From the NCBI GenBank assembly GCA_032718475.1, contig JAUCBJ010008112.1:3660-67659 (forward strand): a stretch of 64,000 nt of DNA, written 5' to 3'. This document shows positions 17,877 to 64,000 of this stretch, one piece after another. The translations under genes and the position numbers were made by a program. The first letter of the stretch is position 1. The number at the start of each line of letters is the position of its first letter. The DNA comes from Nemertoderma westbladi (lineage: Eukaryota > Animalia > Xenacoelomorpha). The notes under the pieces are model-generated. The model did no database searches. It was not told where the DNA came from and saw nothing but the letters and a program-made list of their open reading frames with translations.

Positions 17877-17887
17877 GTAGGAATGTG
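17877..17887 (+). promoter_or_regulatory. putative self-priming PBS of element B (GTAGGAATGTG)
   Basis: Abuts the 5' LTR, lacks TGG, and is the exact reverse complement of CACATTCCTAC at 16817-16827. Confidence 0.55.
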
Positions 17888-30099: not shown

Positions 30100-32030
30100 T
30101 ATAGAATTATATTCCCTAAATGCCGTGGATTTTCAAAATTTTATTTTATTCGGATTAACTTTTGTAAAGATTGCTTTAAGTTCTCATTCGTATTGGTTCT
30201 ATCATTTGTACATCTATCGGTCAAGTGGTTCAGTAGCTCAGTTGGTAGAGCGTTGGAAATTATATGTGTAGTAGGTATCGAGATCGAATCCTAGTAAGTG
30301 CGAATTATTTTTTGTACAGAATTTCAACTCATTTAAATTAACCGCTACAAATTAATTGCATTCGTCTGTACCAATGAGGCTGTAGTTATTTGATTGTAAC
30401 CAATGTCGTGCAAGTTATATATTAGCTGGACCAATAGCTATCTTTAAAACCCCGTTAGAACCCATAGAACAATCGAGAATTTTCTCGATTGATTGCGGCA
30501 CAAATTTGCTATATAAAGGTGCGATTTGTTCATTAGTTATCAATCTACACTACTTCAATATTCTCTCAGTTATTTAGTTATCTGATATTTGTTTATTCTG
30601 TGCTTAGTTTATTCTCAGATTACATTGTATTATAATTGTATCTTCTGTAATAAAGTCAGAATATTCTCTCAGCTTTTCTATCTGTTTTACTATGGATTCA
30701 CTACGGTGAACAAACTCAGGGACAGGATGGCCGGCTAGAGATCGGGCCGCAGCAATGAACGGGAACATCACGGGAATGTAGACGAGAGACAACCCGCAAT
30801 ACCATCTAGAGTTATTCGCCCATCGCCTGAAAGGTTAGACAGCGTTCGATCCTTGCTACCTAAGTATAAGACCAAAAGATCAAAAGGTAGACGTAGTGAC
30901 ACGCTGTAAGCCCAAAATTACATCATAGGGACTGTACTGTCTTGATTCAGGAAAACCCACAGTAGACCTTCACATTCCTACGGGGGAGGGAGAGCGCAAG
31001 CAGATACTAGTACGCAGATAGGACGTAGGCACACCGGTACAAGGCATACACATTGGTTAGGGTGCAGCAAACTGTACGCTTAACTCTTGCTAAGTACAGG
31101 TGCGCGTGCGACTATTTGCAGTACGACAGTGTCCATTGCATTAGAACTTGTAGGCTAGGGGGGTTGCTGTGTTTTCACCTGAATTGGGATTGTACCGTTC
31201 AGGCGGTAGGGCAGTTTACGTACTAGGCGCAAATAAATTGAGGCTATCAGGGATACTAACATCTACCGTGTCCCCGCCAACGCCCTAATAGGAAGTTACC
31301 CGGACTACCTGGGTGACTAAAATTCTAGATAGGAGCCAGGATAGCTATTAGTACCTGTACGCCTACAGTAGTAAACTAACACATCTCTTCTTAGTATCAG
31401 GGACCTGGTACCTAAAATTGCCGAATTCTGGGCGTAGTATTAACCTTATGCCTGAATTTGAGTCCTGGAAATACGCAAGAGGGGAAGGAACCTTATCATT
31501 CGTGAGTATTGGACCTACAAGTTACAAAATTAGAATATTCGTAAATGCACACCGTACCCAGTAATTATATATGTGAAGGAGCAAAACTGTTTTGACCGTT
31601 CAGAATTAACACACGCGCGTTAGAAATTATTTACACCTCGAAATATATAAAATTAACTTTGTCCGTACTGTGCTTTGCCCGCTAGTTAGACATCTCCAAA
31701 TCTCTGCCTGTACCTAGCTAGCGTCCCTTTGCCCAACCATATAAATCACACCGCGGCAAAGTATACGAGCCCCTTAGTCCGTCAGTGAGTCAGCCTGATT
31801 TTAGGATTCGCTGCGCGGGATTTTGTTTTATCGAAGTTTGTCTGCTCGTAGACTGTTTTCTGCCTCACCGGTTATAAGAGATCAATACTGCAATATATTC
31901 GCTTACTTAGAGTTTACTGTTTTGGTGAGAAGGTCGGATTTATGATTTGATTTACAAACTTTACAGTAAGATATTGCAGGTATTGTTACCGTCTCTTCCA
32001 ATAGTAGGAATAGGCGTATCTCTTCAATTA
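30100..32030 (+). repeat. 3' LTR of element B
   Basis: Direct repeat of 15946-17876, preceded by a short purine-rich GGAGCGG (PPT-like) and followed by the TSD. Confidence 0.95.
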
Positions 32031-32674: not shown

Positions 32675-35600
32675 TTACGTTGGGGAGTCCCTAGATGTTT
32701 GTTGGATTAGGGAGGTGGTCGTGGGAAGAGTCTCTTGCCTTCCATAGTTACCAGACAACTCTCGGTCTCTTTCCAGTAAACATAAACGACCAACTGGGCG
32801 ATTAAGTTGTTGTGTTTCGAATACAATTCCAGGTTTCTTAAAGTTACGTCGCATGACGATGAGTTCTATCGATCGCACTAAACCATCATCGGATATATGA
32901 GTCTCGATGATACGACCTGTCTGCCACCTCTTACGTGGAAGATCTGATTCCACGATAAGAACCATGTCTCCGGCGCTGACGTTTTCTTGCTGCGCAAACC
33001 ACTTTGTTCGAAGTTGTAGCTTAGGAAGATAATGTTTTTCGAAATGGTCAGCGAAACAACAGGATAATAACTGCATAAGTTGCCAAGTTTGTCGGCAGTA
33101 TTCATCTCCGTCCGTGATTTCCGATTGCGGGAGCATGGCTACAGGTTTCTTTAGTAGGAAATGCGCTGGTGTTAGCGCTTCTAGGGAGTCGGGACTCGAT
33201 GAGACTGGCATAAGCGGTCTCTCGTTAAGATAGGCGGCGATTTCTTCCATTAACGTCCGCAAAAGTTCGTCGGTGAGATACGCGCGGCACGGCACTATAA
33301 AGTGAAATGCGGTCTTCACGCTTCGTATTAGTCTCTCCCAACTTCCTCCCCACCAAGGGGCGTTGGCGGCGTTGAAGGTCCAGCTAGATGCTGTTACCCT
33401 TAGCTGATCGTCCACCTGTCTTTGGTTCCAATCTTTCACGTAAGCTTTGATCTCATTATTGGCGCCAATGAAGTTTGTTCCTTTGTCGGATCTTATAGTG
33501 TTGCTAGTTCCAAAACGAGCGATCTGTCGGCGTAAACTCAGTATGAAGCTGTTGGTAGATAGATTGTTCACCATATCTAGATGAATCGCTCTACAAGTCA
33601 TACAGACAAAGATGACACACCATCGCTTGACTATAGTCCTAGCACGATATACTTCAATAGGGCCAAATAAATCCACACCAGTATTAGTAAAGGGTGGTTC
33701 ATAGAAGCTTACTCGTTCCCTAGGTAATTCTGCCTCGCGCTGTGTTAAAGGCCTACTAAATGCTTTCCTGCAGGGTATACAGTTCCTAAGAACTTGGTTT
33801 AGAGCTCTACAGGGCTTATGGAAATAATAGCGAGTTCGAATTTCGCTAAGAACTCGTTCTCTACCAGCATGGTAAAGTCTACTGTGAACATCTACAATCA
33901 TCTTGATTTGTATTTCAAGATTTCTAATGAGTATGGGAAACTTAGTGTCAAAGGACAATGGAGCATTAGTTAATCTCCCTCCGACACGTATTAATACATC
34001 TATCATTGTGCTAGAGAAACGATCCCTTAAGCGCATCTGTGGATTTCTCAACAACAGGAAATACTTATCGGAATCTTCATAGCATTGCAGGGGTCTCAGT
34101 ATCTGCTTATTGGTATCATCATGTTCTTGGTAACTGATCTTCTCAGTCAGAAACCTATCAGACACTCTGTAAACGGGAAGGTCTTTAATAGCATGGACCT
34201 TTTCAGATACTATTGGAGCAGTATCACTAGCGATCTTCGTCCTGGAATAGTGATGATGGAAACATCTTTTCAGGTACACAACGGCCTTGCAAAGCCGATT
34301 CCAGGAGCTATAATGATCTATTGCTCTTTGTAGGAGAGGGGAGACGTCTGGTGTTCCAGATTTCCAGTCTCTTTCCCTGATCTCTATAACGGATTTATTC
34401 GTATTTCTCGTAACATCCGTGGGTATGTTTAGATCTATGGCGTCGTCACCAGAGGCGTGTAGTACAGACAGATCTATCACGGGTTTAAATAACTTTGATT
34501 TACTCGTCCGGGTTTTAGGTTTGACTTTCTCCGCTCCCTTGGCTTGTCTAATCTCTGCGGTAGTGAGATGAGGGAGCCATTCCTCCTCTTCTTTACTCAG
34601 GAAGTCGGGTCCACCTAACCAGTCTGAAGTATCTATCAACTCTTGAGGAGTTGCTCCTCTGGAAGCGAGGTCAGCTGGATTAATCGTCCCAGGGCAATGT
34701 CTCCATTGATCCGTATTAGAGCGACTAAGTGTAATGGCTACTCTTTTGGTAATGAAGACGCTGAACTGACAGACTTCATTTGTTATATACTCCAGAACGA
34801 GTAAAGCATCAGTCCAATAGACAGTTTTCTCAAGTGGATAGTCGATCTGTTCTGTTACATTCCGGCCGATGGCTGTAGCGTATAGATCCGCCTTTAACTC
34901 CGCTCTAGGAACTCGTAGTTTGTTGTTTATTAGGGCCTTAGAGGCGACCAATGCAACCTTAATTCCATCCGGAGTTTCAACCCTCAGGTAGGCTACTATA
35001 CCTATTCCCAAATCGCTGGCGTCTCCAAACACATGGAGTTGATAGGCATATGTGGGGAGAACGTGACCAAAATATGAACGGGAAATCTTAAAGTTCTCGA
35101 TGGATGGTAGATAATCTTCCCATTTCATCCACTTCTTTAGCAGTTCTCCCTTAAGTGGATCATCCCACGAGTGTTTTTCGAGCCACATTTGTTGTACTAA
35201 GCTCCGAGCAACTAATATGACTGGGCTAATATATCCCAATGGATCGAAATAAGTGCTCAGGATACTTAAACAAATCCATTTAGTTCTAACTGGATTATCT
35301 CGTTGTTTTAACTGAAAGAATAGAATGTCTCTCTCCGTGTCCCATTTTAATCCAAGAGTCTTGGTTTCTGGAAGATCGTCCTTAATGAGGTCCAGGTCTT
35401 TTAACACTTCGGTCTTCTACTGGTATCAATTCCCGGAACTCACGGGAGGTACTAGTGAATTTGGTTAGGCGAAATCCACCTCGTCGTAAGCACTCAACCG
35501 TTCCATTATCAACATTTATCGCTTCTTCCACCGATGGAAGGGACTTTAAATTGTCATCCATGTAAATATCCCGTTTGATGTTGTCGATAACCGCTTTAGA

Positions 35601-38600
35601 GAAGGCATCTCGATTGTCATCGGCAGTGGTACGCAGTACCGAACAAGCGTTCGAGGGGCTCGACATGATCCCGAAAGCCTGGATTGTCCTTCAGTACTCC
35701 ACCGGTTTTAGGTTGAGGTCTCCTTCAGGCCACCACAGAAATCGTAGGCTGTCTCGCTCCCTATCCAACGCCTTTACTTGTAGGAACATGCTTTCGATGT
35801 CCGAAGCGAACGCGATCGAATATTGCCGCAGTCTTAGTAATATTCCCAACAAAGATTGGAGTAAGTTGGGTCCCGGCAACAGTTCAGTATTCAGGGATTG
35901 ACCCATGTAAAGGGCGGAGCCGTCAAACACTACCCGGACTTCGTTGGGTTTACCGTGCTTGGGAACGTAATGATGTGTTAGATAATACGTTCTCTCCGTT
36001 ATGGGTGTTTCTTCCGGAACTCGCTCCGCGTATCCCTTATCTATAAATTTCTTCAGTTGGGTTTTATACATTTCCCTGGCTTGAATGTTAGACGTCAGAC
36101 GCCGATGTAGTTGAGCGATTCTTTTTTCCGCTAAAGGTCGGTTATTTACGAAGCTGGGTTCTCTCCGTCGGAACGGAAGACCAATCTCATAGCGACCTTC
36201 TTCCTTCAGATAACATGTAGTCGTTTCCGGAATCTGCTTGGCTCTCTCTTCCTCGACAGACAAGGCTTTGTCGTAGGAATTAGGCTCTACGGCTTCTTGA
36301 GTAAAGAATCGTACGGCGTGTTCATCGCGGATTTTGTTATTATATCGATCTATCACTTCGTTTAATTCATCGTTATAGGTAAATTGTTCACCATGTTGGT
36401 TGATAAGGTGACATAGGTTGACTTGGTTTAGCCAAGTTTGGTTCGCAGTGAGGAGATCAATGGTATTTTCCTCGTCGTAGAGGTTGCTTATGTCGTCGTT
36501 ATCTGAGGAGTATGGGGTTTCATCAGCTGGGATTTCTTCTTCACTTATATCTTCCTGCCATTCACTCACCTGGTGGACTCGTTCACTTGGGAGTCTTTCC
36601 AGTAAGGTCCTATGGGAAGGTCCAGTGAAGTACCAACCTACTCTTGTTCTTCCCGCATACGTCTGGAGTGGTCGCGGTCGAGCAGGCCATTTTTCTAATG
36701 TCTCAAGCGCCTCGTGCGCATTTTGGCCGAGTAAAATCTGTACCCCTGGATAATCGGTCCTGAATCTAGGTATGTTGTGTTGCTTTGTAAAATGATCTTC
36801 ATCCCAGTTGTAAGGCTCCACTTGGCTAGTAGCAAAGTTCTTTATCGCCACCATCTTGACCGACCTTACACTATTTTCTCCTAGTTCATCCTGGGGAGTG
36901 CACAACGCTCCCACGTAGTAATCTGTGGCTACTGTGGATTTCCAAACCTGCATAATTCCAGAAAGATTCTGTTTGGTTCGGAACTTTGGTTGACCATCAA
37001 AGATGTCTTCGGCTAGATCCTTGTCGATGAAGGCGCCTGTACTGCCGGAGTCAAGGAGGGCGTTTACTATCAAGCTCTTCCCTATCCCATGGACCCTCAG
37101 TTGCATCACCGGGAATTCTCGGATACCTACAGATGAAGTTGGCGCTTTACCAGAGAGCGGTCTTTCTGGAATAGGCAGTAGAGGATCTTCTCCATCTGTT
37201 TCTGTCTCGTATGTAAGTGCTCGATACACAGCTGTGTTGATCATATAACAGGATTCATTTTCGTCGGAGAATTCATCCATGTAGAATCCTTCCATCTCCG
37301 AACTATGGTCAGTGTCGTTCACATCACTGAATTGGACATTCGGGCTCACTTACCTGACTCGTACAGGTTCTGTCAAATTCGGTGTGCAGCAAGATATGAT
37401 GTTTCGCGCCGCACTTCGCACACCTTGCGTCCGAATAACAGGTCCGTCGTTGATGTCCTCGTCTGAGGCAATTATAACACAACCGCTTATCCCACATGAC
37501 GTCACGCCTATCCTTCAGGGATTTCTTTAAGAATTCATCACACCCACTCAAGCCATGTGGCCCGTCGCACAATACACATTTAGGTTTGATGTTACTTACC
37601 TTAACCTGCGTTGTGTTGTGCACACTTGTTCTTTCTTCAGGCTTTCTTCCATGAATTCTCTTAGGAGACATAGGGGGAGTTGTTACCTGTTCTCTCCTGC
37701 CACTGGTTTGAGACTTAGATTTACTTACGTCTTTCCTAACTTTATTGACATAATAAGATCTTTCGGTGTCCGTATAACACACTGGTGTTACCTCTTTCAT
37801 AGTAACGGCTTTTTCACTTACCTTACTTTCCAGAGTCTTCTCTCTAGACTGTTTTAGGAGTTGTAATCTTACCTCTCTGTTTAAGAATGACAGAAGGTCC
37901 GCCATGGTTGGATCTCTATGTTGTTGGTCCATCAGATAGAGAACCTTTTTGTCCCAGCGAGTACCTACTCCACCCTTTGGCAAAGTTGATGCTACAGCTC
38001 CTACAACCATAGAATTCTGGTATTCATGAGACTTACCCAACCAGTCTAGCTGTTTACAGATCTCCTGAATCTCATCGGAAAACTCTATAATCCCGCTGCT
38101 AAGAAACTTTCTGGGCGCCATTAATTTCGCATAAAGATATCTAGCTATGTTTGTCCTATTACCATACCTGATGTTTAGTGTATCCCAAACTTGTCTTAAT
38201 CCGTCTGGATGTCCAATAAACTTTAACGCCATTAACTTGGGAGGTCCTTCCAAGCACTTGATGAGGAATCGAAGTTTCTCTCCGTTAGATAGTACAGAGT
38301 TCTGTATGATATCTTTATAATATTCATTAAAAAGTAACCATTTCATCTCATCTCCATTGAACTTGACGACCTCTCCTACCTTTACTGCTTGACGGGCTTC
38401 CGTTCTAGCCATCTGACGTGTAAAACTTTCTTGAGCCATCGTATTATTTAATATCGAATTATCGGTATATAAATTTCTCGGATTATGATCAGATCTGTAT
38501 GGGATATCATTATCAACAGTCTTATAATTACCCTTAATAGGGTTTACTATAGGAGTTTCTACTTCGCTAGCAGTATAGATGTGTGTAGGCTCCACACCTT

Positions 38601-40134
38601 GCGCATGAAATACTTCAGACCTAATGGGCTGACACATTGTTACATGGGGTGGTGGTATACCCATTTGCATATTTACTAATTTATCGCGCTCTAAAGCGAT
38701 ACTTTGTTGTACTTCTTGCAGCTCTAACCTACTCTCTCTTACTGTTCCCTTTAACAGTTGAACAGTCCCTTCCAATTCTCGGACTTGCTCGGAAGATTTG
38801 TTTTTGTTACCTTCCAGCTGCCCGAGCAGCCATTCCATCCCCCGTCGTCCCTCGTCCACCCACTCAACCGCGGAGGCGGGAGATGCCAACTTAGTAGCTG
38901 GATGGCACATCGGGACGACGGGAGACAGTTTGTTGATAATGTCTTGTTCGGCGTCTAGGACTGTTTGGGATTCCGTCAGTTGTCTACTGGGCACAGGTAG
39001 TTTAGTACTGTGCAAAGGGAATTTAGAGTTAGGTTCTGGAAGTACAGGGGTCTCTATCATAGGAGTGGCTTCGCTAACAGGCCTAATTATTTCGGGCTCA
39101 TCTACTATAGTAAGGAGTCTTTCTACTCTAATAATTTGGTCTGTAGGTTCTTGATGACTTAAGTCTGCATTAGCTAGTTGCCTTCTCACCACAGGAGGCA
39201 AATTAGGTACTTCTGCCGGTGTGGCGCTCTTCTACATCCACTTGAACGAGATTTATTACCTTTACCCTCGGGATCCGTTGTATCACCTTCATCAGAGGAG
39301 GTAAATCCCTGTCTTCTGGGAGTAGATCGACTCAGTAGTTGCATCTGAGTAGCTGCTCTCTGTTTATTTAAGTAATCTTGTTTCGCCTGAAGATTCTCCA
39401 ACTCTAGTTGGGTTGTCGCTTCAGATGCTCATCGTTCTGCTTCTGCCACTGCCGCTGCTGCTACCGCTTTTCTTTCGGCCTCTGCCACTGCCGCTGCCGC
39501 TGCCGCCGCTGCTGCTAACTTTCGATCTTCTATTTGCCTTTTCTTTATTTGTTCTTCTTGGTCCATTACGATGAGGATGCTTTCAGCAAATTTAGCCTCC
39601 TCCGCAGCTAATATTTCCGCATCTAAAGAGTCCAACCCGAATTTGGCTCCCTCACTATTGGGATGAATTCCAGCTAGCCGTCTTCTTAGCTCTTTGTCAC
39701 CTATAAATCGTTGATAATCCGACAGATAGATGTCAATAGCATCCTTCTTTTGAGGTTTTCCGGATATCGCTTCGCCTTCCACATGAGAAAAGGTGGCATC
39801 TGTTGATTCTCCGTGGGTAGCTCGTTCAGTTAGCTGAACCCTCCATTGTGTTGTTCCCTGGACTTTAACATTCACTCGTTGGAACCAAGTCTTTACAGCC
39901 ACTTGCAACGACGTGTCTTGGCTTCTCTTCGAGGCTTCCTCAAAGGCTGAAAGGATTAATCTGATCCGCAAGATACGTTCTCGCACTTGATAAAGCAGCT
40001 CTCCCTGCTCTTGAGGTCCTTTTGGTTGTTGGAATAAATGCTCTTCTAGTCGTTCCAAGGAGTTGAAGAATCCCTGGACATATCCTGCTGCTGACCTCTA
40101 AGTCGTCTAATAGTGTCTGACAGGAACGAAGCAC
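32675..40134 (-). pseudogene. Element A gag-pol with integrase, frameshifted
   Basis: Gag KFNGDEMKW, CYNCLRRGHQRRTC. PR LLDSGS. RT SDIESMFLQV, IYMDD. RH FGDAS, NPADLASRG. IN HSRLYH..CIPC, GVDLFGP, RSDKGTNF, WERLIRSVK. Frameshifts near 39200, 37340 and 35400, plus two in-frame TGA codons. Confidence 0.93.
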
Positions 40135-41455: not shown

Positions 41456-42556
41456 TAGATCACTCATGGTGGTGAACAGGCATTACTTTAGGAAACAGAG
41501 TGGAGGGGTTTACTGTGGAAGATCACCCATGGTGGTGAACAGGCATTATTTTGGGAAGCAGAGTGGAAGGGTTCCACCTTGGTGTAGTGGTCGCATTGAA
41601 TTCACATCTCCCGTAGGTCGTGGGTTCGATCCTCACATGGGCCAGGGTAGTTTTCGTTTCGGCACGAATGCTTTAAAGGGACCAGCCAGGGCGCTTCTCT
41701 GCCTTGCATCTTTAATTGGTAGCTAAATGAGTACTGGAGTTTCCTCTGGGGAGTAAAGTTCTGGGGGGACCGCACTGGAAATAAGTCGTCAGACTTTGTG
41801 CGTAATCCCTGGCCTAGCGGCCGAAGAAAATTTACTTGTTTGAATGGTTTACTGTGGAAGATCACCCATGCTGGTGAACAGGCATTCCTTTAGAAACAGA
41901 GTGGACGGGTTTACTGTGGAAGATAATCCATGGTGGTGAACAGGCATTCCTTTGGAAAACAGAGTGGAAGGGTTTACTGTAGAAGATCACCCATGCTGGT
42001 GAACAGGCATTCCTTTAGAAACAGAGTGGAAGGGTTTACTGTAGAAGATCACCCACGCTGGTGAACAGGCATTCCTTTAGAAACAGAGTGGACGGGTTTA
42101 CTGTGGAAGATAATCCATGGTGGTGAACAGGCATTCCTTTGGAAAACAGAGTGGAAGGGTTTACTGTAGAAGATCACCCATGCTGGTGAACAGGCATTCC
42201 TTTGGAAACAGAGTGGAAGGGTTTACTGTGGAAGATCATCCATGGTGGTGAACAGGAATTCCTTTGGAAAATAGAGTGGAAGGGTTTACTGTATCACCCA
42301 TGGTGGTGAACAGACATTCCTTTAGAAACAGAGTGGAAGGGTTTACTCTGGAAAATCACCCATGGTGGTGAACAGGCATTCCTTTGGAAAACAGAGTGGA
42401 AGGGTTTACTGTAGAAGATCACCTATGGTGGTGAACAGGCATTCCATTACAGACTGAGTGGAATGGATTACGGTGGAAGATCACCCATGGTGGTGTGGTG
42501 AACAGGCATTCCTTTGAGAAACAGAGTGGAAGGGTTTACTGTGGAAGATCACCCAT
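41456..42556. repeat. second array of the ~63-bp satellite
   Basis: Same unit and orientation as 1-510, about 13 units, interrupted by a SINE. Confidence 0.95.
41574..41845 (+). mobile_element. tRNA-derived SINE inserted in the satellite
   Basis: A box TGGTGTAGTGG, B box GGGTTCGATCC, ~270-bp body. Splits one satellite unit at GAAGGGTT|...|GGTTTACTG. Confidence 0.8.
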
Positions 42557-46976: not shown

Positions 46977-49142
46977 CACCATGACCCGTAATATAGTGTC
47001 ATTTTCTGATGACACGGACCCCCCCCCCCCCCCCAAATTTTTCTTCAAATCTTTATCATATTGCTTGAAATTTGAAACACAACTAGTTCAACTCACCGTG
47101 GTTGTTACCATGAAACCGGAATTTTCGATTTCGCCTTTAAATTTTATTTATAAGCGTTTTAAAAAAGTGTCTTTTGCGAAATCGCACCCTCCTGTATCAT
47201 TGCCATTCTTCACTTCAGTCGTATTTTTTTCATATCAATAAAAAGCTTGCGTTGCAAGGATTCCAAATATGTAACAATGTCTGAATTTCGTTGAGAAACA
47301 GCTGAGATATAGGCGTTCAAAGATTGCAAGAATTATTGTTCACTGCAGGCCATTTATTCTATTTAATAAATACACAATATTCTGGAACAATTTGTTTATG
47401 TATGATTAGCTACGCAATATAGATATTGTATAGGCATACCGCTGTTGCCTACCAACTCATAAAATAAATAACACGTTCTAGAATTTTGTGTATTTATTAA
47501 ATAGAATAAATGGCTTGCAGCGAACAATAATTCTTGCAATCTTTGAACGCCTATTTCTCAGCTGTTTCTCAATGAAATTCAGATATTGCTACATATTTGG
47601 AATCCTTTCAACGCAAGCTTTCTATTGATGTGAAAAAATTACGACTAAAGTGAAGAATGGCAATGATACAGAGGGTGCGATTTCGCAAAAGACACTTTTT
47701 TAAAACGCTTATAAATAAAATTTAAAGGCGAAATCGAAAATTCCGGCTTCATGGTAACAACCACGGTGAGTTGAACTAGTTGTGTTTCAAATTTCAAGCA
47801 ATATGATAAAGATTTGTAGAAAAATTTGGGGGGGGGGGGGGGGGGTCCGTGTCATCAGAAAATGACACTATATTACGGATAATTGAATGTACCGACATAC
47901 TGGTGATGTATATATTAACTTTAAGGTAAACACTAGAGTCTTACACCCTTTAACTACAAAAAAAATATAGAATCAGGACATTAAGCCCAAAATACCTTCC
48001 AGACCCTAAGGCCATCAAGGAACACAAAACAAAACAAACAAAAAACACAAACACAAGTATAGTATCAGGACATTAAGCCCAAAATACCTTCCAGACCCTA
48101 AGGCCATCAAGGAACACAAAACAAAACAAACAAAAAACACAAACAAAATATATTATACCATGCTCCACATACAAGTATGTATCGCAACCCTAACCCTAAA
48201 ACCTAGCCGCCATACACTAAATGATACCGGTATTAAACTGCACAAAAGCTAAGCCTATATTCTATAAGAAAATATATGACATTTTTGTCGCCGTGAAAGA
48301 GGTATGACTAAAACAAAATAATTAATTTGTTAAAAATATGGTTGCGTTTCGGCGTCTACGACCAGTACGCGCTAATCCTCGACACCTCATCAGCTGGACA
48401 GGGAATTAGCCAAGCCTAACTATATTGCACCATTGACCTAAATTAATCGCACCATCAACTCAGTTACCACTCAGCCCAAACAGACTTCAGACCTCAGAAC
48501 ATTGGAACACTATAGGCCTACAGTAAGTAAACATGTAACCAATGGAAAACTGGTAGTTTGCTAGAGCAAACACACAGCACAAAAATTATATAAGATTTAA
48601 CAACATGCAGTGATGCCGGAGTTCTGCTCTATCCCAGTAAAAATTTGGGATATTCATATGTGATAATTGAATGTACCGACATACTGACTAACAGGGGGTT
48701 GTGATGTATATATTAACTTTAAGGTAAACACTAGAGTCTTACACCCTTTAACTACAAAAAAAATATAGAATATATATGTGGAGCATGGTATAATATATTT
48801 TGTTTGTGTTTTTTGTTTGTTTTGTTTTGTGTTTCTTGATGGCCTTAGGGTCTGGAAGGTATTTTGGGCTTAATGTCCTGATACTATACTTTTGTTTGTG
48901 TTTTTTGTTTGTTTTGTTTTGTGTTTCTTGATGGCCTTAGGGTCTGGAAGGTATTTTGGGCTTAATGTCCTGATACTATACTTTTGTTTGTGTTTTTTGT
49001 TTGTTTTGTTTTGTGTTCCTTGATGGCCTTAGGGTCTGGAAGGTATTTTGGGCTTAATGTCCTGATTCTATATTTTTTTTGTAGTTAAAGGGTGTAAGAC
49101 TCTAGTGTTTACCTTAAAGTTACTATATTACGGGTCATGGTG
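46977..49142. mobile_element. palindromic MITE with ~400-bp inverted arms and TA-flanked CACC...GGTG ends, right end interrupted by an insertion
   Basis: 46977-47380 is the reverse complement of ~47490-47878 plus 49134-49142. TATA flanks both ends. Confidence 0.85.
47879..49121. mobile_element. non-coding insertion with 12-bp TSD, direct and inverted 92-bp repeats and a hammerhead-like core (Penelope-like remnant or retrozyme candidate)
   Basis: ACTATATTACGG is duplicated at 47867-47878 and 49122-49133. The start is repeated at ~48662 and inverted at the end. Minus strand has CTGATGA-GGTGTC...GACGCC-GAAAC. Confidence 0.55.
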
Positions 49143-49399: not shown

Positions 49400-51170
49400 A
49401 CAACTCCCTATCACCCATGACATTTGCTAGATCATCCGCATCTTCAAGGCCAGTGTCCTTTAAGATGCGTCTCAAGAAAGTCATGGGCTAGCCACCATGC
49501 TTATTCACTCCATGAGGCTGCTAAAGTACAAGATTATGCACTGGCTGGTCCTCACGGGGAAAGCAATGTCCTGCAAAGCGGAGGCGATTTTGTTCTAGTG
49601 TCAAGCTTGGGGGAACCAATGAGACACCTCCAATGTTATATAGTGTCTGGTTGGAGATGTGTGCATTGAACTTGACACAATGAACCCGGCGTAGCATTCT
49701 TGTGAATGTGCCGTCCAGAGATTTGGTGTCCTCAGCAGTTAGAGCCCAGCATGGACTCCCATAGAGGAGTACTGGAACTACTGCTGCTCTAAATAACCGG
49801 ACCTTAAGTTTCCGATTAATTCTTGGTGACTTCCAAATCCTGGAAAGCCTATTCAAGGCTGCCCATGCCTTTCCCTTACGTATTCGAAGGTCCTCACCTG
49901 ACTTCCGGATCCATGATCCCAGGTAACAGAAGTCATCCACATGCTCAAGCATACCATCTTTTGAGCTTATGCTCATCCGATCAGAGACTTGCTGAGGACT
50001 TTCAAAGTTAACTGTCAAAATTTTGGTCTTTCTCGAGTTAATAAAAAGACCAACACTAGAAGCAGCATGTTCTAATGAGCTGAGGAGCCGTTGGGCTCCC
50101 TCTAGTGATTCTGAGAGTACTCCTAAGTCATCAGCAAAGTCTAGATCAGTTAGGTACTTGGCAGGATTTCCTCGACTTCTGGAGCAAGTAGGTGGAGTTA
50201 TCATCACCCCATCATCATTATGATGATCTAAGGATATGCGTAGAACATAGTCAACAACAATTATGAACAAGAATGGTGCAAGTGTGTCTCCCTGGAGGAC
50301 GCCCCATAACACTTCAAATGGTTCTGTGTCACCGTCAACAGTAGACACAAATGTTGTCGAACCATCGTATACTGATCTGATTGCTGCAATAATTTCATCA
50401 GGAATCCCATATAATGAAAGTATGCTGAACATACGTGAGCGAGAGACTGAATCAAAGGCCTTGAAGAAGTCAACAAAGATAACAGCCAGATGCCTGTCTT
50501 TCTTTTTTGATAACTCTTCAATTATCCTTCTAAGTGCCAAAATGGGCTCCATGGTCCCACGACCTTTACGGAACCCATTCTGATTTCCACGGAGCAGTCT
50601 CTCAATGGGATCCCTGATGCGATTTAATAGAATTCTATTGTATAGCTTTGCAGCAATCGAGATCAATGACATTCCCCGAAAAGAACCATAGAGTGTTAGG
50701 TTGCCCTTCTTGGGAACTGGCACCAACTTATTTGTTTTCATTTCTTGTGGGACTCTTGTTGTACGGTACATGTCTACTATGATGGGGTAGATGAGCTTTA
50801 AACACTCAGGTATTTTAAGACCTCAGGGGGAACACCATCTACTCCACTGGCACGATTGGTCTTAATGCTCTTTGCAGCAGCCTTCACTTCTGCAAAGGAG
50901 ATATCACCAATGGGAATATCTGGGAGTACAGACTCAGACACTTTTACTTCTATAAAGTTATCAGGCAATACCCTGTCATTATTGAGGAGCTTTTCAAAGT
51001 GGGCCTTCCAACCATTGAGGCGATCGGCTGGTGATTCAGCCTTAACCTTGGTGGTTGGTTGGCTTCTTCGACCAGCAAGCAAGTTGATCGATCTCCATGC
51101 CTGGGATGATTGCCTGCTGTCGTCAGCATCCCCCATAAGGAACTTTGTTGCGGCAACCCATGACCTACAA
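49400..51170 (-). pseudogene. 5'-truncated LINE (RTE-like) reverse transcriptase
   Basis: RASGVDGVP, VPKKG, NQNGFRKGR, FVDFFKAFDSV, GVLQGDTLAPFLF, LDFADD, FCYLGS, VLLYGS. Frameshift near 50790. Confidence 0.92.
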
Positions 51171-54550: not shown

Positions 54551-55828
54551 TGTAAAAGCTTCTGTGGGATGCAACTGGTCCTTCGCCCCGCGATCCAGTT
54601 TTTCCCCCATACGCTGAAATACTCTGAAACCTGCTGTAAAAGCGTTTACAGATATAATTGGATCCCCTAGCCCTCGGGGTGCTGTATAAGTGTTTTTAAC
54701 GGACATAAAATAGATTCTTCTGAATGTGTGCTTTATGCGGACGTAGCAGGGTACACAACCCGCAATGCGGCATTTCACTGTCACTATGTCAAGGGAAGGA
54801 TTCTGATTACGACATCTCCCAGCTGGATGATGACGTGGAGGGAGCTCTCATTGGACTCCTGGTTCCTTTGTTTTGGTCTAACAACCAATCAGGGTGATTT
54901 GCGTTTTCCTTGAAGAGATACCTACAGCAGCTCCCAAACTCAGTGTTTATGTCGTTCCATACTGCCTGAAGATCGGCTGGAATGACGCAATGTTTCTGCC
55001 TTTTTATAAGAACATTAGTAGGCTAAATTATAGAAAGCATAGCTATTATCGATTCGATCCGATTCGATTCGACACGATTCCAATTTATAACTTAACGATT
55101 CAATGCAATCTAATTATATCTTAACCTACCGTCATACTGCTTTTACTGTTTGTAATTTTGTATCAGTATAATTGGATGTTATTAGTTGAAGAATATCAAT
55201 AATCAACCCACATTTTCCCAATATCTTTGATACACTACAGGTTAGAGAGAAAGGTTATGTACAACAATTGCGACTTTATTATTGTGTTTGTAGTGAATCT
55301 AATGTTGTTTGACAGACACTACCTGAGTCCAGTGCATATCTCTTTATACCTGATCAAAGTCAGTAACTGTCGGCATATCAGTGAGCAGTGTTGTGCGTTA
55401 CCGGTAGCGTGCGTGATTGTAAAGTGATTGGATCTGATAATAAAGCATTCCTAAAGAATGCGCCCTATGCTTGAAATTTAAGCCATATCGTTGTGTGTAG
55501 TATCAGTCATAACTCTGTTTACATAGGTAGAGCGCCACGTCCTAAAAGGAACTGCTAATATTTCCCGAAAGTGAATAATATTTGTCAGAGATTATATATT
55601 AGTAATCAATCGAATAATACAGTAGGCTTGACCGCAAATAAATTTAAGCCCACGAATCCAGTCTCCCGGTGTTATAAACGGGTCATTTGGACGCGCATGG
55701 ACTGGCTTCGGCTAATGTTTTTGGTTTGTTTTGTATTAAATCTTATCATCTTACAAAAGGCAGATTATCAATAAAGACATATAAATTTCGGCAGGTTAAA
55801 CTGCTGAAGGTCTATAAAAGCGCGTACA
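54551..55828 (+). repeat. 5' LTR of element C (TGT...ACA)
   Basis: Begins TGTAAAAGCTT and ends GCGCGTACA like A's LTR. CCAATCAG (~54885) and TTATAAGAAC (~55004) are conserved with A. Confidence 0.75.
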
Positions 55829-55839
55829 ATAATAGCTAT
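55829..55839 (+). promoter_or_regulatory. putative self-priming PBS of element C (ATAATAGCTAT)
   Basis: Abuts the LTR, lacks TGG, and is the exact reverse complement of ATAGCTATTAT at 55039-55049, 34 nt downstream of TATAAG. Confidence 0.55.
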
Positions 55840-57823
55840 CGATCTTATTTGCGGTAAGCAATAAGATTGAAAATACCGGTACTACTACCGTAGGTCCGTA
55901 GGCCCAACTGTCATAACCGGTACTGCTGTGCAAGTACATTAGTATTATTTCGATTGTGATCTATTGTATATTGTGGGCTGCCAGGGGAATAGGGATTGAT
56001 CACCCCTCATTCTTTTGTATAGTTTACTTATTTCTGTCGGTTTTATTTACTAGTAAGTTAATATTGAGCCGAAGACGTGTAAGTCTGCTCAGATTGTTCA
56101 GATCATTGTAGGCTGGACTGTTGTCTGACGGTTGTTAGGCTTGAAGATTACAGCGTGTGTAGAGAGTCTGATAGGTGCCAGTTAGTAAGTTGGGGCAACT
56201 CGTAAGTTGTAAGGTCAACCCCTATAAAGAATAAGCCGCGCTACCTTATTAGCACGCATACTCACTAACAAGTTTCGGAATCTGCATATACTGTGGTTAT
56301 TTAGGCTTGATAGTAGTCCGTCAGCGTTTATCCTGTATTGTTTGTATAGTCTGTTCAGATACCGTAATATTATTCAGATATTTTGTGGGCTGGATTGTTG
56401 CCTAGCTGTTGTTGGGTCTGAAGGAATTGCTACGTGTGTAGAGTAAGTCTGATAAAGTGCCGTTAGTAAGTTGGGGCAGCCATCGCTGTAAGGACAATCC
56501 CCTCTTAAAGAATAAGTCGTACTACCGTATTAGCACGCATACTAACTAACAGTTTCAGAATCTGCACATACAGTAGTTTGTTTAGGCTTAGTGGTAGTCT
56601 GTCAGCATTTTAGTTTGTATTTTATTTGAGTATTCTGTACGGGTAGCGTAATATTTATTATTCAGAGTTTATGCAATTACTCGCAACATTCATGTCCCCA
56701 AGTTTATTCCTACAGTAATTGTGTTTGTTATACATACCGTTATAGTTAAATTAACCCCAGTACTACACGGGCTGCTTGGCGTAGGTAAAGACTGGTGACT
56801 TAGTGCCCCGGTCACTCCAGCAGATGCTGTGGTTCTTTTAACTGTTCAAGTATATTTAACTACTGGTTATCTGTTTTACAAGTACCTGTACCTAATTTAG
56901 GGTTTAGTGTACAGTGCTGTCCGAGAGTAATTAGTGTAGGCATTATTGTGTTGTAAAGTAGTTAATAGGCACGCTCGTTCTGGTAGACGGCGGTAATTAA
57001 CTTCTAGGTAGGAACACTCCGTAGATACATAACGTTGTACCTATAGCGCTACGGCTGTAGGTCGTCAGGCGGTGGTATTTTCCTATCTAGACAACGCAAT
57101 ATTTACTTCTGCTTATTATTTTCAAATACCGTAGTATCCTGTCCGTTGAAATAACCAGGAGATCTAACCCTTTGTTAGACTGGTTAGTAGTTTCCCTGTA
57201 AAATTGCCCTAAAAATCTGTACGTACCGTTTTTGTGTGTTTATTAGAGATTGTAATCTCACCAATAGTAAGTAACTAGTAAATAAGTAACGTAGGCCAGT
57301 AGAATTATTCTGTTTAGTGTCCCATAAGTAGCACTTCACTGAAAGCGCACAGCTTCTGTGTAGTGGTATTTTACCGGAAATAGTAACACCTATTTCAATC
57401 TTGTAACAAATCCCTTATCAGGGTATATATATATTATAAATCAACTCCAAAGATTTATAAATCAGTAGGCCTGTCATACAACAAGTAGGTCTCAATATCA
57501 GTTGGACTACTGCTTACATAACGGTAACAGAGTAAACTCAAGTAACTAAGTAACCTTATAATTTCAGAAATTCAATTATCCTAAATAATTGATATACCGG
57601 TATCTATAATAGGCTTAATATATATTTGTATATATTTGTACTGAAATTATATACCGGTACTCTGTGACAAACCTAGTCTGCAATAATTATATATACTGTG
57701 GGTGTATACCGGTATCCTAATATATCGTAATTAATTACCGGTACTAGGCCAACAGTCCTACTGAATTACTGGACTTGCTTTAACTGTAACTATAGCAGTA
57801 GGCATTCAACTGTATAACTAAAC

Positions 57824-60800
57824 ATGGCTGACATAAAGAAAACTCTGTCAGATAGTCTTTTAGAAACAACAGCCTGTTTCTCAGATCAAAGTGTAGAGAA
57901 TCCTAGACCGAGATCTGAGACCCCTCCTACTGTAAGAAGGGCAACCCCTGCAGTAGTTGTGTCAGAACCTAGGTTGGTAGAAGCGATTTCGCAATTTGCT
58001 AAGTTAGTGAAGCGCCGTAGGTCTGCCATAGGCACTCGGGCCCAAGTCAAACGGAACCCAGAGGAAGCTGTCCTATCGCAGCAACATCCTGATCACGAAC
58101 CTAGTCCCCAGCGACCCGATAGCTCCAGTAGTTCGGAGACTGTTGAGCGGACACCCGAACGCGGAGCGAAAATGGTGGATACGGCTTGTGATGAGCGGCC
58201 AACCTTTGAAGAATCAACCGACGCCCCTTCTTCTCAAGTAGAAAGCGAAGTGGAAAGCGAAGTGGAAAGCGAAGTGGAAAGCGAAGTGGAAAGCGAATTA
58301 ACACCAGAAGGACCACAAAAGAGAGATGCAATTGATACCTATTTGTCAGATTATCAGCGATTCATAGGAGACAAGGAGTTGAGAAGAAGACTGCATGGAT
58401 TTACACCTAATAGTGCAGGGGCTAAGCGTGTATTGGACGAACTCGATGCTGAGATGTTAGCTAAAGATCAAGCTAAATTTGATGAGGAAAGACGCATCGC
58501 TAGAGCCCAGGAAACACAAGTCCAGAAAAAACAAATAGAAGATCGAAAGGCAGCAGCAGCGGCAGAGGCAGAGGCAGCAAGAAAGTTAGCAGCGGCAGAG
58601 GCAGAGGCAGCAAGCAAGCTAGCAGCGGCAGAGGCAGCAAGCAAGCTAGCAGCGGCAGAGGCAGAGGCAGAAAGAAAATTGACAGAAGCGGAAAAGAGAG
58701 CTTCTGACGAGATCGCCCAACTAGAGTTGGCAAATCTGCAAGAGACACATGATTACATCAATAAACGCGACACAGAAAGTCGAATGAAGATACTGAGTCG
58801 ATCTACTTCGAAACGCCAAGGTTTTACATCCTCAGAAGAAGGAGACACTACCGACACTGAAGGTGGAAGAAATAGATCCCGTCTCAGTAGGCGTAAAAGA
58901 ATGTCTCCACGTCAGAAATTGCCTGATTTGCCTCCAGCTGTTAAGAGACAACTAGCTAGCATAGCAGTAGATAGTACAGAACCCACAGACCAAACTATTA
59001 CCATTACCAGACTCCCTACTATAGTAGATGAGCCGGAAATAATTAGGCCTGTTCTAGAAAACACCCCTTCGGTGAGAGAGACCCCTGTACTCCCCAAATC
59101 TACTACCAAACTCCCTTTACACAGTACTATTAAATTAACGGCACCTGGTGGAGCAGCCCAAGTCCCGGTTCTGGAGACTGAGAGAGACATACAAGATCTG
59201 TCTCCCGTCGCCCCGATACGGCCCGCTACAACGTTGGCGACTCCCGCTTCGGCGGTCGAGTGGGTTGAGAAGGGACGGCGGGAGATGAGTCTCTTGCTCG
59301 GTCAAATGCGAGAACAGCGAGACTGTTCCTCGCAACAGATCCGGGACTTAGAAGGGACTGTCTACCAACTCAAGGGAACCGTAAGGGATAGTAGGATAGA
59401 GCTGCAAGAAGTGCAGCAAAATATCGCTCTCGAGCGCGACAAATTAGTCAATATACAAAGGGGAATACCAACACCCCCTGTAACCCTGTGTCAACCTGCT
59501 AGGTCGGAAGTGTATCATGCGCGAGGTGTGTCGCCTACACGCATATATACTGCTAGCAAAGTAGAAACACCCCCTATAACCCTGAGTCAACCTGTTAGGT
59601 CTGAAGTACATCATGCGCAAGGTGTGTCGCCTATACGCATATATACTGCTAGCGAAGTAGAAACTCCTATAGTAAACCCTATTACGGGAGACTACAAACC
59701 TGTGAATAATGATATTCCCTATAGACCTGATAATGATCTGAAAAATTTATATACCGATAATTCGATATTAAATAACACGATGGCCCAAGAAAGCTTTACG
59801 CGTCAGATGGCTAGAACAGAAGCCCGCCAAGCGGTCAAAGTGGGAGAAATTGTCAAATTCAACGGTGATGAGATGAAATGGTTACCTTTTAAAGAATATT
59901 ATGAAGATAGCATACAGAACTCTGTACTATCTAGCGGAGAGAAACTGAGATTCCTCATCAAATGTTTGGAAGGACCTCCCAAGTTAATGGCGTTGAAGTT
60001 TATTGGACATCCAAATGGATTAAGACAAGTCTGGGATACATTAAACACCAGGTATGGTAATAAAGATAATATCGCTAAGTATTTGTATGCAAAACTGGTA
60101 GCCCCTCGAAAGTTCCTTAGTAACGAGATTATAGAGTTTTCCGATGAGATTCAAGAAATCTGCCGACAATTGGATTGGTTAGGTAAGTCCCATGAATATC
60201 AGAGCTCCATGGTCATCGGAGCCATAGTCTCTACTTTGCCAAAGGGTGGAGTATGTACACGTTGGGACAAGAAGGTGTTGCATATGATGGAGCAACAACG
60301 ACGGAGCCCCACCATGGTGGATCTCATGTCATTCCTAGACCGTGAGGTCAAACTACAACTAATAAAGCAATCCAGGGAAAAAACATCGGAAAATCAGGTA
60401 AGTGAAAAACCCGTTTCTAGGAAAAGAATAATACCCGTATGTTATACTGACGACGGCGAAAGCCAGACCTCCCATGAAGAAGACAGCGGGAAAGACACAG
60501 CAAGATCCTACGATGACCACAAAACCCCGAGAGACGTAAGTAAATACCAGCCTCGAACCAATGATAGGAGAGACAAGCTTACCAAGACCCCTCCTCAGTC
60601 TCCCAAAGGAATTCAGGTAAGCAAGCCCGAAGAACGAGCGAAAGTGCACAGCATTGCCCAAGTTAAAGTGAGTAACATCAAACCAAAATGTGCGCTGTGC
60701 GACGGGCCCCACCGTTTGAGTGCGTGTGCGGAATTCCAAAAGAAATCCCTGGCAGATAGACGTGGAGTCCTGTGGGATAAGCGGTTGTGTTATAACTGTC

Positions 60801-62122
60801 TCAGACGCGGACACCAGCGGCGAACCTGTTACTCTGACGCAAGGTGTGCTAAGTGCGGCGCGAAACATCATAGCTTATTGCACACAGAATTCGAACGAAA
60901 CCACCCGAGTCAGGTAAGTGAGCCCAAATCACATGTCCAATTCAGTGATGTGAACGACACTGACCAAAGTTCTGAGTGGGAAGGATTCTATACTGACGAA
61001 TTCTCTGATGCCAACGAATCCTGTTATCTAATAAACACCGCAGTGTATCGAGCACTTACGTACGAAAAGGATAACGACACGGAGTTTCCATCAACCTCCT
61101 TGGACAAGCAACCATCTCGGAAAACTCCAACATCCAACATAGGAATACGAGAATTTCCGGTAGTCCAGGTAAGAGTTCACGGTCCCAACAAAAGTTACAT
61201 AGTGAACGCCCTCCTTGACTCAGGTAGCACCGGAACATTCATCGACAAGGAGTTAGCCGAGGATATTTTTGCTGGACAACCCAAATTCCGAACTAAGTTA
61301 AATATGTCCGGAATTATGCAGGTTTGGAAATCTACCTTAATGGCAGATTATTATATCGGCGCATTGTCCACTCCACAGGATAAATTAGGGGAACAAAGTA
61401 TAGAGTCAGTAAAAATGGTGGCAATAAAGAACTTCGCTACTACTCAAGTAGAACCTTATGACTGGGACGAGGACGAGAACATCCAACATTTGGGAATACC
61501 TCGATTCCAAACTGATTATCCTGGAGTACAAATCCTTATCGGCCAAAACGCGCATGAGGCGCTCGAGACGTTAGAGAAACGGCCTGCTCAACCGCAGCCA
61601 TTACAACCTTATGCGGTAAGAACTCGAGTAGGTTGGTACTTCACTGGCCCTTCCCGCAGAACCCTTGAAGAAAGACTGCCACAAGACCGGATACTTCAAG
61701 TAAAAGCTTGGGAAGAGGAGAGCAGTGAGGTGGACGAAGCCACTGAGGGAACAACATACTCCTCAGATAGCGACGATATCAACTCCAATGTAGATCAATG
61801 GAGACATCGACCCGAGACGATTAATCTAGCCGACATCGCTTCCAGAGGAGTAACTCCTCAAGAACGGATAGATACTCCCGGCTGGTTGGGTGGACCCGAC
61901 TCCCTAAGTAAAGAAGAAGAAGAATGGCCTCCTCGTCTTGCCGCGGCGGAGATTAGACAGGCCAAGGGAGCGGAGGAAATATCACGACGGCCTAATCGCC
62001 CAGCTGGTCGTTTAGGTTTACCGGGAAGAGACCGAAAACTGTCCGGAAACCATGGAAGGCAAGATACTCTTCCTACGACCACTTCCCTAATTCGACAAAT
62101 ATCTAGGGACTCCATCACGTAA
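57824..62122 (+). CDS. Element C Gag-protease ORF (1432 aa) with in-frame loss of RT/RH and IN
   Basis: Gag, three knuckles and LLDSGS are present. Then SSDSDDIN|SNVDQWRH..NLADIASRG (end of RH) and GAEE|..NRPAGRL..TTTSLIRQISRD (end of IN). Confidence 0.88.
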   Translation: MADIKKTLSDSLLETTACFSDQSVENPRPRSETPPTVRRATPAVVVSEPRLVEAISQFAKLVKRRRSAIGTRAQVKRNPEEAVLSQQHPDHEPSPQRPDSSSSSETVERTPERGAKMVDTACDERPTFEESTDAPSSQVESEVESEVESEVESEVESELTPEGPQKRDAIDTYLSDYQRFIGDKELRRRLHGFTPNSAGAKRVLDELDAEMLAKDQAKFDEERRIARAQETQVQKKQIEDRKAAAAAEAEAARKLAAAEAEAASKLAAAEAASKLAAAEAEAERKLTEAEKRASDEIAQLELANLQETHDYINKRDTESRMKILSRSTSKRQGFTSSEEGDTTDTEGGRNRSRLSRRKRMSPRQKLPDLPPAVKRQLASIAVDSTEPTDQTITITRLPTIVDEPEIIRPVLENTPSVRETPVLPKSTTKLPLHSTIKLTAPGGAAQVPVLETERDIQDLSPVAPIRPATTLATPASAVEWVEKGRREMSLLLGQMREQRDCSSQQIRDLEGTVYQLKGTVRDSRIELQEVQQNIALERDKLVNIQRGIPTPPVTLCQPARSEVYHARGVSPTRIYTASKVETPPITLSQPVRSEVHHAQGVSPIRIYTASEVETPIVNPITGDYKPVNNDIPYRPDNDLKNLYTDNSILNNTMAQESFTRQMARTEARQAVKVGEIVKFNGDEMKWLPFKEYYEDSIQNSVLSSGEKLRFLIKCLEGPPKLMALKFIGHPNGLRQVWDTLNTRYGNKDNIAKYLYAKLVAPRKFLSNEIIEFSDEIQEICRQLDWLGKSHEYQSSMVIGAIVSTLPKGGVCTRWDKKVLHMMEQQRRSPTMVDLMSFLDREVKLQLIKQSREKTSENQVSEKPVSRKRIIPVCYTDDGESQTSHEEDSGKDTARSYDDHKTPRDVSKYQPRTNDRRDKLTKTPPQSPKGIQVSKPEERAKVHSIAQVKVSNIKPKCALCDGPHRLSACAEFQKKSLADRRGVLWDKRLCYNCLRRGHQRRTCYSDARCAKCGAKHHSLLHTEFERNHPSQVSEPKSHVQFSDVNDTDQSSEWEGFYTDEFSDANESCYLINTAVYRALTYEKDNDTEFPSTSLDKQPSRKTPTSNIGIREFPVVQVRVHGPNKSYIVNALLDSGSTGTFIDKELAEDIFAGQPKFRTKLNMSGIMQVWKSTLMADYYIGALSTPQDKLGEQSIESVKMVAIKNFATTQVEPYDWDEDENIQHLGIPRFQTDYPGVQILIGQNAHEALETLEKRPAQPQPLQPYAVRTRVGWYFTGPSRRTLEERLPQDRILQVKAWEEESSEVDEATEGTTYSSDSDDINSNVDQWRHRPETINLADIASRGVTPQERIDTPGWLGGPDSLSKEEEEWPPRLAAAEIRQAKGAEEISRRPNRPAGRLGLPGRDRKLSGNHGRQDTLPTTTSLIRQISRDSIT

Positions 62123-62292: not shown

Positions 62293-64000
62293 ATAACGAA
62301 CCTGTCTTTAGACTGGGTAGTTTTTGTCTAAAGCTGAGGCCGGCAAAAACACGATGGATATATATATTTATATATTTACCTATATCACTATATATGTCAC
62401 TATGTATGTTCACCAAATGGCTTGAAACCACTTGCATGCATTGTAAAATTGTAAACGCAAGTATTTATTAATTGTTGTCTAGTTGTTGAATAAAAAAGTT
62501 GGGAACGATTCGAAGTGCGATATTCGAAATATTTGCATATTTTCAACATTATTGAACGCGAAATTAAATACCCACAACTCCCTTGCTTGAAATGTTTTTC
62601 AGGTGATTGATATTTAGCAATTATTATGAGGTTACTTACTACTGAAATCTGACAGAATGCCAAACGTATTATTATAGTTCTATCTCTATTCAGCCAGTTA
62701 GTGTAATGTCAAGCAGTACATCATTTATATATCGTATGTATCTATAGGGCCTAATTGTCATCGTTATAATACTGTCATCAACTTAGGCTAAGCTCAATTG
62801 GAATGCAAAGGCTTAGAAGGGTTTTGTATATCTGGGACGTTTACAACAGCTGTCGATTAAACTAACAAAACCATAAAACTGAACCAGGGTGGCTGCCAGC
62901 CGGGTACCAACGGCTGTTGGGTAGACTTAAGGGAACATTTCACAAACTTTCATAGGAGGCATGTACATGTACATTATATTGGTTGCTCCGATGTTTTTAT
63001 TAGGCTAACTGAGAATGTATCAGGTATAAATACTGTAATTATAGTGTTCTTTATTTTATTTATCTAATACAGAAAAGACCCCTCCGCAGAATAAACTGCT
63101 CTTTTGGGCCGTTTCTCAGGTTGCGGATATGGATACCATTTCACACATCGTAGTAATTGTGATTATGATTTGTTTGCCTAGGCGAATGTGTATTACATTA
63201 GATGGGAGGCAGTTTTTTGGTTGATGCAAGTCATTCTTGGTTGCATCTTCCAATCCCATCTGTTTCTTGGAGTCTGTGTAAGACAGGTTCGTTTAAAGCC
63301 ATCTTGATGGCGTTCTAGTTTATAACGAACCTGTCTTTAGACTGGGTAGTTTTTGTCTAAAGCTGAGGCCGGCAAAAACACGATGGATATATATATTTAT
63401 ATATTTACCTATATCACTACATATGTCACTATGTATGTTCACCAAATGGCTTGAAACCACTTGCATGCATTGTAAAATTGTAAACGCAAGTATTTATCAA
63501 TTGTTGTCTAGTTGTTGAATAAAAAAGTTGGGAACGATTCGAAGTGCGATATTCGAAATATTTGCATATTTTCAACATTATTGAACGCGAAATTAAATAC
63601 CCACAACTCCCTTGCTTGAAATGTTTTTCAGGTGATTGATATTTAGCAATTATTATGAGGTTACTTACTACTGAAATCTGACAGAATGCCAAACGTATTA
63701 TTATAGTTCTATCTCTATTCAGCCAGTTAGTGTAATGTCAAGCAGTACATCATTTATATATCGTATGTATCTATAGGGCCTAATTGTCATCGTTATAATA
63801 CTGTCATCAACTTAGGCTAAGCTCAATTGTAATGCAAAGGCTTAGTAGGTTTTGTATATCTGGGACGTTTACAACAGCTGTCGATTAAACTAACAAAACC
63901 ATAAAACTGAACCAGGGTGGCTGCCAGCCGGGTACCAACGGCTGTTGGGTAGACTTAAGGGAACATTTCACAAACTTTCATAGGATGCTTGTACATGTAC
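62293..64000. repeat. 1029-bp near-identical tandem duplication running off the window
   Basis: ATAACGAACCTGTC starts at 62293 and 63322. Identical 87-aa ORFs lie at offset 1029. Confidence 0.93.

Follow-up and report, generated by a model that had tools for sequence, protein, structure and literature searches.

The window analysed here, 64,000 nt of Nemertoderma westbladi DNA, is of animal type and rich in repeats. It holds three Bel/Pao elements of interest, referred to as A, B, and C, with the following main features:

54551 to 55828, plus strand: 5' LTR of element C, 1278 bp, with TGTA...TACA ends placed by homology to the 3' LTR of A
57818 to 62122, plus strand: single ORF of C, encoding Gag (DUF1759, zinc knuckles) and protease, followed by scraps of the RNase H end and the integrase end
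9397 to 10493, minus strand: 3' LTR of element A, a close relative of C; the 5' LTR and PBS of A lie outside the window
32675 to 40097, minus strand: broken gag-pol of A, split into four ORF pieces that encode RT, RNase H, and integrase of Bel/Pao type
15946 to 17876, plus strand: 5' LTR of element B, 1931 bp, with TA...TA ends
30100 to 32030, plus strand: 3' LTR of B
18669 to 27722, plus strand: ORF of B, Gag-protease-RT-RNase H fused in frame to an extra domain/ORF

Element C has only one LTR inside the window and no 3' LTR; its own target duplication is thus out of view. Both ends of this LTR were compared with public contigs. A purine-rich loose end abuts position 54551 (run X4), and the joint between LTR and PBS is bridged by record 29 of run X5, with 0 differences, and by record 16 of run X3. 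The element is deleted for RT, RNase H, and integrase, and is left with gag and protease only. One open frame of 1434 codons is retained across the two large deletions. Contigs identical to the C LTR have word depths in the thousands, compared with 22–29 for unique flank, which is a weak hint of a large family. In run X4 the depth is high over 54558–55150 and low past 55260; the type of this run was guessed, and no inference was drawn from the pattern.

C and A share 68–76% protein identity across most of the ORF, and the domain order in A is Peptidase_A17, Integrase_H2C2, DUF5641. The 3' half of the LTR (55265–55718 in C, 9935–9501 in A) is 72% identical between the two and far better conserved than the promoter half. 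Element B (15946–32030) is inserted within A. It has a 5-bp target duplication, a purine tract, and paired LTRs, and the 3 differences in 1931 bp between these LTRs indicate that it is young. No integrase was detected in B, which would need the integrase of another element. A tRNA-like stretch was spotted by eye in the B LTR, upstream of the promoter (16067–16150 and 30221–30304), and received no call from ARAGORN or Rfam. No tRNA genes and no Rfam matches were found anywhere in the window. Other features include an ORF with RVT_1 and DUF6451 on the minus strand (49521–50822), which is a separate RT of non-LTR type, a 63-bp tandem array at two places (1–533 and 41457–42556), a long palindrome (46986–47878), and a near-identical 680-bp pair downstream of C (62293–62972 and 63322–64000).

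Elements A and B have in common an extra 3' ORF (10575–13502 on the minus strand in A, 26631–29312 on the plus strand in B; 28% identity, E = 4e-32). It contains zinc knuckles and a region resembling EXD/DEDD 3'–5' exonucleases, with an Atlas score of 0.87 to an exonuclease-CCHC cluster. The top fold hits were Egalitarian, EXD2, and oligoribonucleases, none with an E value of 0.001 or better, and the model was poor (mean pLDDT of 40). No homologue of near length was found; HMMER gave four weak hits, and there was none among the sequences of solved structures. That this exonuclease-like product might trim a primer end in A and B is a long shot.

The nearest database proteins of the three elements are all Bel/Pao, at 36–44% identity, and those with names come mostly from echinoderms, cnidarians, and molluscs. 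No relatives closer than 44% to A, B, or C were found in the protein database searches. By their predicted proteins, A, B, and C classify as Bel/Pao (Belpaoviridae). They resemble this family in the order of Gag, protease, RT, RNase H, and integrase and in their Pfam families, and also in having LTRs, a polypurine tract, and, as in some members, an extra 3' ORF (PMC8742986). The expected LTRs, polypurine tract, and target duplication are all displayed by B. The LTRs of C and B, at 1.3 and 1.9 kb, exceed the 0.2–1.2 kb stated for the family (PMC8742986). In the ICTV profile, the PBS of Belpaoviridae is 18 nt long and complementary to the 3' end of a host tRNA (tRNA-Arg or tRNA-Gly), which serves as the primer, and Bel/Pao replication is called poorly understood (PMC8742986). 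C, B, and 20 of the 21 related elements described below depart from this description, as the first 7 nt beyond their LTRs hold no TGG. A and B come out as a single long-branch pair in each of two trees (support of 0.997 and 1.0), for which long-branch attraction is possible; these trees contained no reference elements of the named clades Sinbad, Suzu, Sailor, Dan, and Flow.

The region where element C would be transcribed and primed contains the following features:

54885 to 54892, plus strand: CCAAT box, a predicted part of the promoter, common to the LTR of A
55005 to 55013, plus strand: TATA-like TATAAGAAC, common to A; from spacing it predicts a start near 55035–55039
55039 to 55049, plus strand: candidate self-primer of C, 11 nt
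55439 to 55444, plus strand: nearest AATAAA downstream of the primer, within a block conserved in A; as a predicted poly(A) signal it would put the primer in R
55829 to 55839, plus strand: PBS of C, adjoining the LTR

A preliminary description of this DNA claimed that C carries a Tf1-like self-priming signature, and its account of the pairing is correct in both coordinates and letters. The sequence at 55829–55839 is the exact reverse complement of 55039–55049, about 780 nt away, and the match ends at 11 nt on both sides. Each 11-mer occurs once in the window. The absence of a TGG after the C LTR is likewise borne out, as is a TATAAG conserved with A, which begins at 55005, 34 nt ahead of 55039. 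Such a distance lies toward the upper limit of what is usual between TATA and start. Both TATAAGAAC and the upstream CCAATCAG are present in the LTR of A. Another TATA-like word, at 55029, lacks conservation in A; if used, it would start the C RNA downstream of the 11-mer. The 11-mer sits at the predicted start, 390 nt ahead of the next AATAAA. Among the variants listed from public contigs, none falls inside either 11-mer, which is uninformative on covariation.

We estimated how often such a match arises by chance. Of 20,000 dinucleotide shuffles in each case, 19 reached it with C and 9 with B, which in this strict test corresponds to about 0.001 and 0.0005. When the comparison was slid along the real window, 850 of 62,712 positions matched with repeats included, and 100 of 62,622 matched once longer inverted repeats were removed. 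Eight of the 11 nucleotides in C form a palindrome of which the window contains 8 copies where about 1.8 would be expected. Moving the PBS of C by one base also gives it a complement of 11 nt at 17186, in the B LTR. Because of this common palindrome and the match on the B LTR, a single 11-nt match is weak when taken alone, in agreement with the earlier caution that the C 11-mer by itself could be chance. The primer helix of C is AT-rich (−10.6 kcal mol−1). The palindrome present in both the C and the B motifs can pair with itself at −8.5 to −8.7 kcal mol−1.

Element B also shows a match between the sequence adjoining its LTR and the LTR itself:

16817 to 16827, plus strand: 11-mer of B that may serve as self-primer, some 460 nt downstream of a TATA at 16356 and beyond the first AATAAA, at 16495
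17877 to 17887, plus strand: PBS of B, without TGG, pairing with 16817–16827 over 11 nt

The match lies at offset 0, as in C, and its letters are unrelated to those of C. B had been said to show the same pattern with a different sequence. This holds for the pairing and fails for the position near the start, since the CCAAT boxes and the TATA of B predict a start near 16385 and the 11-mer lies about 430 nt downstream. B is therefore not a case of priming by the first 11 nt. In folds that begin at the predicted start, the B 11-mer is unpaired, at a cost of 11.5 kcal mol−1, and flanking duplexes in B were not significant compared with shuffles. For B, a strict cis scheme of the Tf1 kind would call for use of a later AATAAA, at 17078, or else for a primer supplied by a second RNA. 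We also looked for a primer extended by splicing in C or B; the best spliced match was 8 nt, which is not above background.

Tf1 requires a central duplex between primer and PBS and two further duplexes between PBS-adjacent sequence and the LTR downstream of the primer (PMC10085805). In C, two candidate stems flank the PBS:

55626 to 55641, plus strand: LTR arm of the outer (U5-leader) stem, pairing with 55845–55859 through 11 perfect pairs and 4 more after a bulge
55845 to 55859, plus strand: leader arm of the outer stem, with an alternative local hairpin at 55840–55872
55691 to 55702, plus strand: LTR arm of the inner (U5-end) stem, pairing with 55810–55825 in the minimum-energy fold
55810 to 55825, plus strand: U5-end arm of the inner stem

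The two stems are nested, and the PBS lies between them. Each flanking duplex was equalled in 8 of 200 shuffles, and a separate test gave 2 of 60 and 0 of 60. For the perfect 11-nt core of the outer stem, 0.07 matches are expected. One matched pair change between A and C was read by eye in the inner stem. Of 15 RNA segments that were folded, 9 have the primer helix in their minimum-energy structure; the 6 that reach position 56000 or beyond lose it, at a cost of 4.5–6.1 kcal mol−1. In these computed folds, the C RNA can form a three-duplex "pretzel" like that required by Tf1. Both flanking stems were found only in C among 19 elements, and this result (1/19) rules out the pretzel as a general trait of the relatives.

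To place the match of C among its relatives, loci were collected by a profile search: the best 80 of 513 confirmed metagenome loci and 23 genome-bin loci, 103 in all. The set was picked by likeness to the RT of B and has no bearing on the Bel, Pao, and Tas elements of insects or nematodes. The count covers the 21 loci in which a second copy of the LTR allowed the end of the 5' LTR to be set; the other 82 are outside the count, and 8 of them were scanned separately. These comparators were chosen by eye, the ends of three were moved by 1–6 nt, and two ends (L033 and L034) are uncertain. We searched for complements to each element's own LTR, contiguous or across a GT/GC–AG intron, starting 0–5 nt after the LTR. 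The bins are prokaryotic, and the Bel/Pao elements in these loci (L081–L103) are most simply explained as contamination from a host animal. Some LTR ends are non-canonical: L101 (6020–12925) has TA...AA ends with a 5-bp duplication, and L062 and L065 have TG...TA. No related loci were found in viral contigs, and the loci searched yielded no additional member of the A/B/C lineage.

Seventeen of the 21 comparators match their own LTR by 10–15 nt, 5 contiguously and 12 at a splice junction (L004, L018, L024, L062, L063, L066, L069, L070, L081, L082, L092, and L101). In these 12 the complement exists only across an intron, which is GT–AG, 67–511 nt long, and within the LTR. When five sister pairs are collapsed, 13 of 16 distinct families match. 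In controls with the same search, none of 19 3' flanks reached 10 nt; among pairs with a foreign LTR, 14 of 496 reached 10 nt and 6 of 496 reached at least 11 nt, one of these six being the C PBS on the B LTR. Two of the misses come close when read by eye: L075 has 12 nt with one G–U pair, and L083 has 10 of 11 with one mismatch. L034 has a self-match score of 6. The remaining miss, L039, is the sole comparator with a TGG and has a self-match score of 4. In the exploratory scan of the 8 further loci, in which LTR ends were not independently fixed, the top candidate was an intron-spanning match in 7; two of the loci are the same element.

All positive comparators have a match that begins at an offset of 0–4 nt beyond the LTR. 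In 14 of the 17 it ends 1–94 nt ahead of a poly(A) signal, and it often lies more than 100 nt after the TATA. The letters of the PBS vary between families and track each family's own LTR, which a shared host primer does not predict. In the sisters L081 and L082, three letters of the PBS and three of its partner have changed together. The positives are spread across the tree of relatives. The signature therefore extends over a broad and mostly marine Bel/Pao branch and is not confined to the A/B/C lineage. The earlier proposal of independent self-priming in this lineage is partly supported: self-priming is the likeliest interpretation, with an origin other than that of Tf1, and its restriction to the lineage does not hold.

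We conclude that element C is probably a non-autonomous Bel/Pao LTR retrotransposon primed by its own RNA and not by a tRNA, in a scheme like that of Tf1. Priming by its own RNA is supported by the flanking stems in C together with the own-LTR matching in 17 of 21 relatives. In the scheme we propose, the C RNA would begin at 55039 or a few bases upstream of it. The PBS would lie in a loop presented by the two stems and would pair there with the 5' 11-mer. A cut after 55049 would then yield a 3'-OH; because C has no RNase H, this cut is likely to be made by that of an A-type helper. RT would copy U5 and the rest of R, and some 400 nt of R would remain available for strand transfer. For most relatives, a primer built by splicing of an intron inside R is predicted, and C and B would carry an uninterrupted form. 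For the group as a whole, we lean toward a reading in which self-priming is normal in a large, mostly marine branch of Bel/Pao, mostly through intron splicing in R. The C family would have an intron-free primer at the start of its RNA and would have converged on the full Tf1 pretzel, with an origin separate from both Tf1/sushi and the TAR copia elements.

The own-RNA primer may instead come from the 3' copy of R or from a second packaged RNA, and be cut or trimmed to the duplex, so that it does not consist of the first 11 bases. This would fit B, whose position is unfit for a cis scheme, and the relatives better, as the matches of 14 of the 17 positives end near the poly(A) signal and hence near the 3' end of the RNA. 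The exonuclease-like extra ORF of A and B offers a further lead in its direction. In C, however, the motif is at the predicted start and far ahead of the next AATAAA, and every flanking stem belongs to the 5' region. The extra ORF was also matched in none of the 103 fetched Bel/Pao loci, so it cannot be a general requirement. We consider this origin of the primer in C unlikely.

The pairing could also act as a structural switch, in packaging, dimerisation, or masking of a site, with the real primer being some host RNA, for instance a fragment of a tRNA. Priming by half-tRNAs is known in copia lineages (PMC6317226), the palindrome in both motifs can pair with itself, and the C leader has two possible folds. 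A switch of this kind leaves unexplained why the PBS letters are specific to each family and follow its own LTR, why the matches start just where the 3' end of a primer is required, and why the element that does bear a TGG lacks a self-match. It seems quite improbable to us. A coincidence in C, aided by the AT-rich palindrome, gains from the over-representation of this palindrome in the window and from the foreign pairs that reach at least 11 nt under the loose search, the C PBS on the B LTR among them. The strict test speaks against coincidence for both C and B. Coincidence would also leave unexplained that the 11-mer lies where the RNA is predicted to start, that two more stems can form, and that own-LTR matches occur in 17 of 21 relatives and in none of 19 flanks. 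We regard it as very improbable indeed.

Self-priming is a described property of Tf1, and it has been predicted for Tj1 and other Tf1/sushi elements (PMC7175516, PMC4600332, and PMC10085805), as well as for Tcn1 and the TAR lineage of copia (PMC6317226). Tf1 and Tf2 of Schizosaccharomyces pombe, Tj1, Tosmo1–3, Tf1/sushi, and Tcn1 are Ty3/gypsy chromoviruses; like C, they have no tRNA site and have an 11-nt complement of the PBS in the 5' part of R (PMC7175516, PMC4600332, and PMC10085805). C shares with Tf1/sushi a PBS beside the LTR that is complementary to about 11 nt of its own LTR and, as computed, the three-duplex pretzel. The promoter spacing predicted from sequence fits a self-primer located at the RNA's 5' end in C and not in B. 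C differs from the Tf1-type elements in superfamily and in having no RT or RNase H of its own. No chromodomain was hit in A, B, or C, the Pfam families of which are those of Bel/Pao. C is thus not a member of Tf1/sushi and at most works like one, and its Bel/Pao placement implies an origin of self-priming separate from that of Tf1. Unlike in Tf1, the match in B and in many relatives is internal. The primer cut is demonstrated for Tf1, whereas for C it is inferred. In the TAR Ty1/copia elements of plants (Houba, Osr-1), self-priming was predicted from sequence by a complement of at least 10 bp starting 0–5 bp after the LTR, and C and B have such a complement. TAR belongs to another superfamily and other hosts, and no intron-built primer is mentioned for it in the available sections of that paper (PMC6317226).

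Term look-up in the available text of four Bel/Pao surveys (PMC3118150, PMC554778, PMC6238403, and PMC8556966) returned no mention of a PBS or tRNA, and the available parts of PMC3601003, PMC8220671, PMC6934838, and PMC5443660 report no self-priming in Bel/Pao. No report of it was found in the literature searched, a scope without Repbase, GyDB, Dfam, and most subscription journals, and an earlier report may exist. C is likely a Bel/Pao variant of a kind of self-priming that is already known and was previously predicted outside Tf1/sushi in copia.

Element C offers sharp predictions, namely a start at 55039, a cut after 55049, and two stems. If a wide branch does prime itself, the description of Bel/Pao as tRNA-primed would be wrong for many animal elements, and annotation that seeks a tRNA site would miss or misjudge them. 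The elements may also be freed from control through tRNA fragments. A solution like that of Tf1 would then be shown able to arise again in another superfamily.
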